4,883 nt of DNA from a virus (lineage: Duplodnaviria; Heunggongvirae; Uroviricota; Caudoviricetes), in the IMG/VR virus record IMGVR_UViG_2645727555_000008. One strand, given 5' to 3'. Below, in pieces: positions 3,847 to 4,776 of this stretch; positions within the stretch are counted from its first letter, which is position 1; each line of letters begins with the position of its first letter. Position numbers and translations under genes: made by a program. The notes below the pieces were generated by a model. It worked only from the letters and a program-made list of their open reading frames with translations, was not told the DNA's origin and ran no database searches.

Positions 3847-4677
3847 TTATTTCACTGTAATGAAAGGAGTGTTAGCCCCTTGAGTCATGTACTGCGGTAA
3901 CTGGCCATTCCATTTATTGATGGCTTCCAGCTCCATAACGTTCGGGTTTTGACGCAGAGCTTCACCGCGCAGACGAATGGCGTCTGCTTCTGCTTGCGCA
4001 CGAGCACGGATAGCATCAGCTTCACCATTAGCCTGTTCACGTAGCATATTCGCCTCAGCTTTACGCTGTTCAACTTCCTGCTGACGTTGCAGAGTACGCT
4101 GGTTAGCCGTTACTTTGGCGTTGATAGATTCAATGACGGTTTTTGGGTAATCAGGTTTTCCAACCCATGACAGGCTCAGTACCTCAATACCAACCGGAGA
4201 CATCTCTTTCTGAATATCTTTCAGTGCGTTGTCCAGCAATTGTGCCTTACCACCGTCGATAAATGAGTCAGTGGTCATACGGCTGGCCAAACGGTTTAGA
4301 GAGTCGGCAATTTTCTGACGCAGATCTGATTCGGTGATATCGTCTACGCCTTTGCGATAGGTCTGGAACACCGTCGTTACCTTGTCACGATTAACCAGAT
4401 ACGCAACGCCAATTTTGTGACCAATAGCAGTACCGTCACTCATCTGGAATGTGAACGGTTCGTCGTAGGTCTTCATTTGTTTGAAGGTCGGGAATACGTA
4501 AAGTTCGGTGTTAAGACCTGTCCATTGGCGACCAACGCCAACCACTTCACCAATCCCTTTGTCTTCACCTAATTTGTTTACTTTGATGCCAACGTATCCA
4601 GGCTCCACGCGATCACAGCCAGTAAGACCCATTGTGCAAATAGCCGCCAGAGCAACTGCAAGTAAACCTTTCTTCAT
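3847..4677 (-). CDS. SPFH/band-7 (HflK/HflC-like) family lipoprotein, 276 aa
   Basis: N-terminal signal peptide with lipobox (LAVALAAICTMGLTG-C); central region and Ala/Glu/Arg-rich C-terminal coiled coil (EADAIRARAQAEADAIRLRGEALRQNP) match SPFH architecture from memory; SD AAGGGG 9-12 nt upstream of ATG. Confidence 0.65.
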   Translation of the reverse strand: MKKGLLAVALAAICTMGLTGCDRVEPGYVGIKVNKLGEDKGIGEVVGVGRQWTGLNTELYVFPTFKQMKTYDEPFTFQMSDGTAIGHKIGVAYLVNRDKVTTVFQTYRKGVDDITESDLRQKIADSLNRLASRMTTDSFIDGGKAQLLDNALKDIQKEMSPVGIEVLSLSWVGKPDYPKTVIESINAKVTANQRTLQRQQEVEQRKAEANMLREQANGEADAIRARAQAEADAIRLRGEALRQNPNVMELEAINKWNGQLPQYMTQGANTPFITVK

Positions 4678-4680
4678 TAC

Positions 4681-4776
4681 TTATTTCCCCTTTGCTTTGA
4701 TTAATGAGTTGATAAACTTACGACCAGCAATAAGACCGATTACAGGAGCACCAAAACCAACGATAACTCCAAACAT
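4681..4776 (-). CDS. Possible 31-aa hydrophobic leader peptide coupled to the SPFH gene
   Basis: MFGVIVGFGAPVIGLIAGRKFINSLIKAKGK; its TAA lies 3 nt before the SPFH ATG and overlaps the SPFH ribosome-binding region. No good SD of its own; upstream sequence enters the inverted repeat. Confidence 0.3.
   Translation of the reverse strand: MFGVIVGFGAPVIGLIAGRKFINSLIKAKGK

Follow-up and report, generated by a model that had tools for sequence, protein, structure and literature searches.

A phage SPFH lipoprotein with a small two-helix membrane partner, and a copy of the pair truncated by an insertion sequence in an Escherichia coli phage-plasmid fragment

Proteins of the SPFH superfamily (prohibitin, stomatin, flotillin, HflK/C) build membrane cages, and a gene for a member of this superfamily, predicted to be a lipoprotein, lies in a 4883-nucleotide stretch of Caudoviricetes DNA (IMG/VR record IMGVR_UViG_2645727555_000008; the whole stretch is hereafter called the window) next to the remnant of a second gene for a small membrane protein. 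Among prokaryotic SPFH operons, a 2009 survey reported NfeD partners only for SPFH1, 2 and 5 (PMC2636767). For phages, a genome paper that mentions the SPFH protein in passing calls its role 'still not clear' (PMC8540360; also PMC4936722), and an SPFH protein of a Pasteurella multocida prophage was described as a vesicle-borne TLR1/2 agonist and virulence factor (PMC9872710). In the literature on SPFH proteins and prophages, band-7 lipoproteins and SSU5 phage-plasmids, we found no functional study of the family treated here, and the literature and records searched yielded no description of its small partner with two transmembrane (TM) helices, of the conserved pairing, of the natural fusions or of the cellular copies.

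The closest described systems were prohibitin and HflK-HflC, which gave the best profile and fold matches in the PDB. They share with the window family a membrane anchor, an SPFH domain, one long helix, a conserved C-terminal segment and an extracytoplasmic position, the last of which is suggested for the window family by its signal peptide. The window family differs in having a lipobox cysteine as anchor instead of an N-terminal TM helix, in its dedicated two-TM partner and phage carriage, and in consisting of a single SPFH gene, whereas HflK-HflC is a heteromeric pair with TM anchors encoded by a two-paralogue operon. The SPFH-NfeD operons (QmcA-YbbJ, YqiK-YqiJ, FloA-NfeD and PH1511-PH1510) are alike in that the SPFH gene is translationally adjacent to, and sometimes fused with, a gene for a small membrane protein expected under or in the SPFH ring. 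However, the phage partner has two TM helices only, without an NfeD or OB-fold domain, and QmcA and YqiK face the cytoplasm whereas the phage SPFH protein is predicted to be exported. The P. multocida protein PM0222, compared by description only, is a prophage HflK/C-like SPFH protein with lipoprotein-type TLR1/2 signalling but was reported to occur in outer-membrane vesicles and to contribute to virulence (PMC9872710). The window SPFH protein and the intact partner are members of phrog_200 ('lipoprotein') and phrog_1130 ('membrane protein', moron category), respectively. Hundreds of phage and plasmid records annotate members of these catalogued families, but PHROGs and GenBank take them for two unrelated proteins. 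The SPFH family is already catalogued; the conserved partner and the fusion forms seem to represent a variant of the SPFH-plus-partner theme that has not been described.

The SPFH lipoprotein and its two-helix partner

The SPFH gene of the window is intact and encodes 276 aa (3847..4677, minus strand). Its product matched the Pfam Band_7/SPFH profile PF01145 with E=2.6e-30 and 106.2 bits (cut-off 23.6) over residues 23-209 and profile positions 2-176 of 176, and phrog_200 with E=3e-108; it was 100% identical to the proteins of many IMG/VR phage-plasmid loci. The N-terminus reads as a signal peptide (aa 1-20) followed by the lipobox L18-T19-G20-C21 with Asp at position +2 (4615..4677, minus strand), the sequence MKKGLLAVALAAICTMGLTG directly preceding Cys21. 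This fits the lipobox pattern [LVI][ASTVI][GAS]C, acylation itself being predicted. Cys21 was one of three invariant columns, the others being G49 and W256, in an alignment of 43 relatives with 30-61% identity, and a signal peptide and lipobox Cys were present in most of the 150 best cluster representatives. An earlier reading of the window from its letters alone (the sequence-only reading) had named the product an SPFH/band-7 lipoprotein, and both parts of that name were borne out, the first by the profile search and the second by the lipobox and its invariant cysteine.

An AlphaFold2 (AF2) model built with the 43 relatives had a pLDDT of 90 and placed strands at residues 21-95 and 164-176 and helices at 97-162, forming a beta-rich SPFH domain (21-176). 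Behind this domain come one long helix (179-243) and a short one (245-255), and the tail was modelled with less confidence. By Pfam envelope and model, the SPFH alpha/beta domain (aa 23-209) corresponds to 4051..4611 on the minus strand. The long helix (3949..4143, minus strand) is rich in Ala and Glu, would correspond to the coiled-coil wall element of SPFH cages, and aligned with the helical wall of HflK, prohibitin and erlin chains; a weak Flotillin-repeat match covered residues 208-266. Further downstream, a C-terminal motif K-W-N/D-G-x-L-P (aa 255-261; 3895..3915, minus strand) is conserved in the alignments, where G258 and P261 were at least 90% conserved among the 43 relatives and W256, G258 and P261 were invariant among nine aligned sequences. 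Foldseek returned HflK, prohibitin 1/2, erlin, stomatin, flotillin, major vault protein and QmcA, all with a probability of 1.00, the best fold matches, at E∼1e-14, being HflK (7vhq_E, 4e-14), PHB1/2 and erlin. The protein therefore has an SPFH fold followed by a long helix, as in the solved cage formers. When the family profile was compared with the PDB, prohibitin-1 was the best match (2.4e-9), followed by PHB2, HflK (1.4e-7), QmcA and HflC. Against the NCBIfam equivalogs it scored 30.2 bits for hflC (cut-off 134.4) and 18.7 bits for hflK (cut-off 159.4), values far too low for an orthologue of HflK or HflC, and the further NCBIfam matches, including FloT, were all below threshold.

The same SPFH lipoprotein carries other labels in public records, namely 'putative serine protease' in AJ298298, KP063541, LC567820, MH160767 and others, 'transposase' in KU682439 and 'transferase' in MW882934. 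We rejected the protease annotation, as no protease domain was detectable with Pfam or NCBIfam, and these labels look like inherited mis-annotations.

The intact partner gene was found in plasmid pECAZ155_2 (NZ_CP019002, 97231-97431; locus L001, 10594-10794), where it encodes 66 aa (MIKIYLLAVATGLSVALIYGLLVPSLISAKSDLAVMLGVLVGFGAPVIGLIGGRKFINSLIKAKGK) and ends 3 nt before the ATG of the SPFH gene (96397-97227 in NZ_CP019002). The protein has two hydrophobic helices and a basic tail and matched phrog_1130 with E=5e-25; the same frame also encodes a 66-aa two-TM protein in phage Cyrano and others. Across the family, the partners are 62-78 aa long with two TM helices, a loop motif P-x-L/M-I/V-S-S/A and a basic C-terminal tail, and their genes lie directly upstream of the SPFH gene. 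The partner profile matched no Pfam family and no PDB relative, YbbJ included, beyond chance TM matches, and the NfeD profile PF01957 was matched by none of 9 window ORFs (open reading frames) and by none of 16 diverse partner sequences (E≤1). The sequence-only reading had noted that an NfeD partner was missing and that the only partner was a small hydrophobic peptide. The first point held for the window ORFs and for the partner family; as to the second, a translationally adjacent hydrophobic partner does exist, but it is a 62-78-aa two-TM protein of which the window keeps a 3' stump truncated by an insertion sequence (IS).

In a scripted survey of 84 phage SPFH loci, 80 had a two-TM ORF of 62-78 aa whose end lay at -3, +1, +4 or +20 from the SPFH ATG. 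The partner was a 67-aa ORF with a 4-nt overlap in the P2-like phage P88, an unannotated 62-aa ORF in the lambdoid phage phiP27, the adjacent gp044 (E=9e-21) in the virulent N4-like Erwinia phage S6, and gp137 (E=5e-14), separated by one small gene, in the Vequintavirinae phage VIK251. Phages phi1026b and CcrKarma had upstream ORFs with 2-3 TM helices and weak or no sequence similarity, and no partner was found upstream in Pseudomonas phage DL54 or Erwinia phage MM7. The distant partners were found with a home-made hidden Markov model (HMM), as a word-indexed search with the 66-aa partner reached close E. coli relatives only. In a species survey that used one genome per species and a four-sequence alignment as query, the partner HMM or a two-TM ORF was located directly upstream of the SPFH gene in Kluyvera, Buttiauxella, a 108-kb Yersinia pestis contig, Salmonella, Pantoea, Lelliottia, Symbiopectobacterium, Chimaeribacter, Sutterella, Luteibacter, Dyella, Saprospirales, Bacteroidales and six Leptospira genomes. 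The neighbours in Leptospira and Saprospirales were ordinary chromosomal genes (succinate dehydrogenase, HMG-CoA reductase and a permease). By tblastn, the SPFH protein was found in 373 phage records, including Stx phages, myophages of Ackermannviridae/Vequintavirinae size, N4-like phages, Kolesnikvirus, Bruynoghevirus, phiCbK-like phages, Burkholderia phages, Mx1, Lak and crAss-like phages. Judged by this distribution, the two-gene unit is mobile among phages and also present in cells. The homologues lay mostly on mobile elements and with the partner; the idea of the sequence-only reading would have failed had there been no SPFH match or had homologues occurred only in housekeeping contexts without the peptide, and the search results showed neither.

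Partner and SPFH protein also occur as a single polypeptide. About 20 of the 150 best cluster representatives (50% identity) were 320-390 aa long with an N-terminal extension, and the partner HMM recognized this extension in at least 13 independent fusion clusters (E from 1e-10 to 3.5e-4). Seven genome loci had the same fused architecture, and a RefSeq 'prohibitin family protein' of Rhodopseudomonas palustris is such a fusion, located in a prophage beside an integrase. Examples include P0344 (L132, 5001-6065) and the clusters P0125, P0135, P0146, P0152 and P0166, among others. The fusions run from TM1 through the loop motif, TM2, a basic linker, a third hydrophobic segment and a Cys to the SPFH domain, and the lipobox-like Cys directly before the SPFH domain was at least 90% conserved. 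Since this Cys is retained, signal peptidase II might cut the fusion precursor into two subunits. An AF2 model of one fusion had three N-terminal helices followed by the SPFH fold. A distant SPFH lipoprotein cluster, P0130 (344 aa), carried a partner-like hydrophobic segment at its C-terminus (residues 293-329; partner HMM E=9e-6), possibly an alternative fusion order.

In pECAZ155_2 the terminator of the upstream recombinase gene is followed by a promoter-like TTGAAA-17-TATCAT (10 of 12 matches), the gene pair and a strong terminator. The latter closes the two-gene unit as an intrinsic terminator in the window as well (3811..3830, minus strand; a stem of 8 pairs, 6 of them GC, and then a T-run) and is the same in L001 at 9743-9724. 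With its putative promoter, the ∼66-aa two-TM gene, the SPFH gene and this terminator, the intact unit is a self-contained two-gene phage accessory cassette.

Proposed arrangement and competing explanations

We favour, with modest confidence, an arrangement in which the intact pair would assemble at the inner membrane, on its periplasmic face, as a ring or cage of lipid-anchored SPFH protein with the two-TM protein as a subunit, the window holding a copy broken by an IS. The small partner would insert with both ends in the cytoplasm, leaving a short periplasmic loop that carries the conserved motif and a basic cytoplasmic tail. This topology follows from the positive-inside rule and from the fusion order TM1-TM2-basic linker-TM3-SPFH, which fits a partner with N-in/C-in orientation and a periplasmic SPFH domain. 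The SPFH protein would be exported, lipidated at Cys21 and retained on the periplasmic face of the inner membrane; Asp at +2 is the classical inner-membrane retention signal of E. coli, and the partner and the fusions are predicted alpha-helical membrane proteins, which points to the same membrane. Through its long helix and C-terminal motif it may then oligomerize into a ring or cage over a patch of the inner membrane, by analogy with the solved assemblies of HflK/C, prohibitin, erlin, stomatin, flotillin and QmcA. The two-TM protein would be an integral-membrane subunit or a client, in the place that NfeD takes for other bacterial SPFH proteins, and the net effect would be that an inner-membrane patch or its membrane proteins are scaffolded or shielded during phage or plasmid carriage.

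Several observations weigh against this arrangement. The +2 residue varies across the SPFH family (S, T, E, Y and others), and Arg at +3 may weaken retention by Asp at +2. Because of this variation, and because the P. multocida SPFH protein was reported in vesicles, an outer-membrane location is conceivable. The partner was missing upstream of the SPFH gene not only in DL54 and MM7 but also at loci L114-L117 and L121, and the SPFH protein may therefore work without it. Co-occurrence and fusion establish a functional link between the two proteins but do not specify its nature, be it contact or a common oligomer, and the TM part of the fusion model had a pLDDT of only 57-71.

Any function linked to the replication origin was rejected, as the pair occupies unrelated positions in P2-like, lambdoid, N4-like and other phages and also lies in ordinary chromosomal neighbourhoods, and we regard its link to the origin in the window as incidental. 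The spread of the pair into virulent phages and housekeeping chromosomal contexts argues for a general membrane-scaffold activity over a dedicated defence or origin-linked function. As a tentative and rather doubtful extension, the two-TM protein and the exported SPFH lipoprotein might constitute a distinct, ancient and undescribed partner system that replaces NfeD, is cellular (Leptospira, Bacteroidota) and was repeatedly captured by temperate and virulent phages. The fusions would then be cut by signal peptidase II at the internal lipobox, and infecting phages would use the cage to protect the inner membrane or re-organize it, for instance against abortive-infection effectors that target membranes or against premature lysis.

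The phage SPFH ring could instead act as an FtsH modulator that encloses host FtsH or competes for it periplasmically, like HflK/C, and tunes the turnover of phage regulators (cII-like lysogeny factors) or of membrane proteins. Phage genome papers have proposed this (PMC8540360, PMC4936722), and the nearest relatives by profile and fold, prohibitin and HflK/C, are both extracytoplasmic partners of FtsH-type AAA proteases (PMC2636767). We nevertheless hold such a role to be unlikely, given that the weak NCBIfam hflC and hflK matches score far under their cut-offs (30 versus 134 bits and 19 versus 159 bits) and thus reveal no orthologue, that there is one SPFH gene instead of a K/C pair, that a lipid anchor replaces the N-terminal TM helix, and that the family is also carried by strictly virulent phages and cellular chromosomes.

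Exclusion or defence was a suggestion of the sequence-only reading, and the pair could serve as a module for superinfection exclusion or against phages or conjugation, a moron with which the resident element blocks incoming DNA or protects the envelope. Among known exclusion factors are small two-TM proteins and periplasmic lipoproteins. A stand-alone cassette with its own promoter and terminator is typical of morons, PHROGs places the partner in the category 'moron, auxiliary metabolic gene and host takeover', and the pair sits in accessory regions of temperate phages. On the other hand, the defence models of PADLOC-DB v2 had no match among 7 window proteins (E≤0.01), none of the papers listed on SPFH and anti-phage activity dealt with this family, and the occurrence of the pair in virulent N4-like and Vequintavirinae phages and in the Leptospira and Saprospirales housekeeping contexts points to a more general membrane role. 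Weighing both sides, we consider a dedicated exclusion module quite unlikely.

It is improbable that the protein is an outer-membrane or vesicle lipoprotein acting on an animal host in virulence or immunomodulation, like PM0222. A triacylated lipoprotein would be a TLR1/2 agonist, and a prophage HflK/C-like SPFH protein in outer-membrane vesicles was reported to signal through TLR1/2 and to contribute to virulence (PMC9872710). The homology of PM0222 to the SPFH family described here is, however, unverified, while Asp at +2, the alpha-helical partner with its two TM helices and the fusions with three of them favour an inner-membrane location, and the family is common in phages of environmental bacteria.

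Finally, that the 31-aa ORF upstream of the window SPFH gene is a genuine micro-peptide partner, as its open frame with an ATG, its hydrophobicity and its stop 3 nt before the SPFH start might suggest, is hardly credible, since its sequence is that of residues 36-66 in a 66-aa protein which all related elements have intact, its frame is interrupted by IS91-like DNA at 4794/4795, its ATG is an internal Met, the sole purine-rich stretch (AAGAG) being ∼13 nt upstream, and it is devoid of TM1, the invariant Pro24 and the conserved Ser28.

The truncated copy and its phage-plasmid surroundings

What the window retains of the partner gene is a 3' remnant of codons 30-66 (4681..4794, minus strand), recognized by its identity to the C-terminus of the 66-aa ORF and by the break in homology. 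The 31-aa hydrophobic ORF within it (4681-4776, minus strand) was taken by the sequence-only reading for a coupled peptide; it is there as a sequence, with its stop where described, but not as a complete gene. In 14 IMG/VR loci a 66-aa variant ends in the same 31 residues exactly. Read backwards, the window frame runs into an in-frame stop within the IS end; its homologous part begins at codon 30, and the first ATG there is that of the internal Met36. Judged from its reading frame, the ORF is therefore a truncation product comprising codons 36-66 of the partner. The window copy has lost residues 1-29 and retains TM2 and the tail, whereas intact copies elsewhere have all features of the partner family. 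The IS end also displaced the promoter, while a Shine-Dalgarno-like AAGGGG belonging to the SPFH gene itself is preserved within the last partner codons, 9 nt before its ATG (4687..4692, minus strand). As the insertion removed the promoter and the first 29 partner codons, the SPFH gene of the window, though intact, lacks its partner and is probably poorly expressed.

The right end of the window (4794..4883, minus strand) derives from the transposase-distal end of an IS91-like element (ISEc37-type), of which it holds the last 90 nt; these match many E. coli and Shigella plasmids at 100%, and a second, inverted copy of the same end forms the left end (1..90, plus strand), as seen from the inverted repeat and by alignment. 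For both ends, sequences of 95-100% identity were present in hundreds of enterobacterial plasmids, frequently more than once in the same plasmid, and in pMccC7-H22 the 90-nt match lies 99 nt downstream of the coding sequence of an IS91-like (ISEc37-family) transposase. When both window ends and two plasmid copies were aligned, similarity stopped at one base in all four, where CCTATCGAT adjoins CAAG. The IS91 family prefers CTTG/GTTC as target, and the window ends have the expected form of an IS91-family end, a sequence just past the transposase gene that diverges after ATCGAT at an adjoining CAAG (CTTG) tetranucleotide. At the right junction, homology to phage-plasmids breaks at 4794/4795 and cuts the 66-aa gene; the left junction cuts an ASCH-domain gene, of which the first ∼51 codons remain (82-240, minus strand) and whose intact form in the pECAZ155_2 locus (L001, 5509-6153) encodes 214 aa. 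The inverted ends thereby enclose a complete replicon (repA and iterons) with a gene cut on each side. The window junctions were absent from PLSDB and from 5426 complete E. coli genomes, and the window is either a rare IS91-flanked replicon segment or an assembly contig bounded by repeats.

A second, independent IS disruption of the two-gene unit is present in a chromosomal prophage of Shigella flexneri (L091, 3230-4000; the same in L092), where an insert of ∼770 nt with diverged IS1 InsA-like ORFs splits the partner gene from the SPFH gene and changes the partner C-terminus. A canonical IS1 end was looked for in L091 and none was found.

Alignment identifies the window as 4.7 kb from the replication region (repA/iteron) of an SSU5-like E. 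coli phage-plasmid with inverted IS91-like ends on both sides. This assignment follows from the high identity of positions 88-4794 to such plasmids and phages. The segment was collinear with pECAZ155_2 at 99.3% identity, repA and iterons included, and matched ∼100 further plasmids of ∼100-110 kb from E. coli, Shigella and Escherichia albertii at 98-99%. The segment was also 98% identical to phages PhiR41_1 and CMS-2020a and 96% identical to phage Cyrano (covering 59% of the window query), and shared a block of 75% identity with Salmonella phage SSU5. The SPFH gene had been called plasmid-borne; the matches to phages and phage-plasmids make phage-plasmid the correct term. As annotated in intact relatives, the gene order is an ASCH-domain gene, repA with iterons, a Cra-like gene, four small genes, the SPFH gene, the 66-aa 'membrane protein' gene, a recombinase (RecA-like) gene and an exonuclease gene.

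Iterons of ∼16 nt (GTATGCTGTCAGCGGT and variants), at least 13 in all, occur on both sides of the repA gene of the window (442-1656; Rep3_N, E=5e-9) in three clusters at 436-541, 1652-1773 and 1930-2188. The first cluster overlaps the start of the longest repA ORF; the RepA of Cyrano is annotated shorter, so that the start of the longest ORF may not be the true one. The placement of the SPFH gene beside the origin in the sequence-only reading was loose, as the last iteron ends at 2188, 1.66 kb from the SPFH gene, with five small ORFs between. These conserved genes (2236-3755, minus strand) encode a Cra-like 70-aa protein (phrog_804), a 111-aa protein with a signal peptide (phrog_2077), an overlapping 59-aa membrane protein (phrog_2535), a 91-aa acidic protein (phrog_2209) and a 141-aa DUF7238 protein (E=6e-38). 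Directly past the stop of the Cra-like gene and adjoining the last iteron is a hairpin (GACTGCGG...CCGCAGTC, 2196-2235), probably the terminator of this minus-strand operon of small genes.

Implications for phages and the host envelope

The apparent micro-peptide of the window is a caution, being the product of truncation by an IS insertion. At least 373 sequenced phages, some temperate and others virulent, and ∼100 E. coli phage-plasmids have a gene of the SPFH family. Together with the partner, the fusions and the cellular copies, it presents a concrete two-component system that is open to testing with respect to membrane, ring, contents and FtsH contact. If the proposed arrangement is true, a periplasmic cage encoded by phages would add a new means by which they manipulate the envelope of the host.

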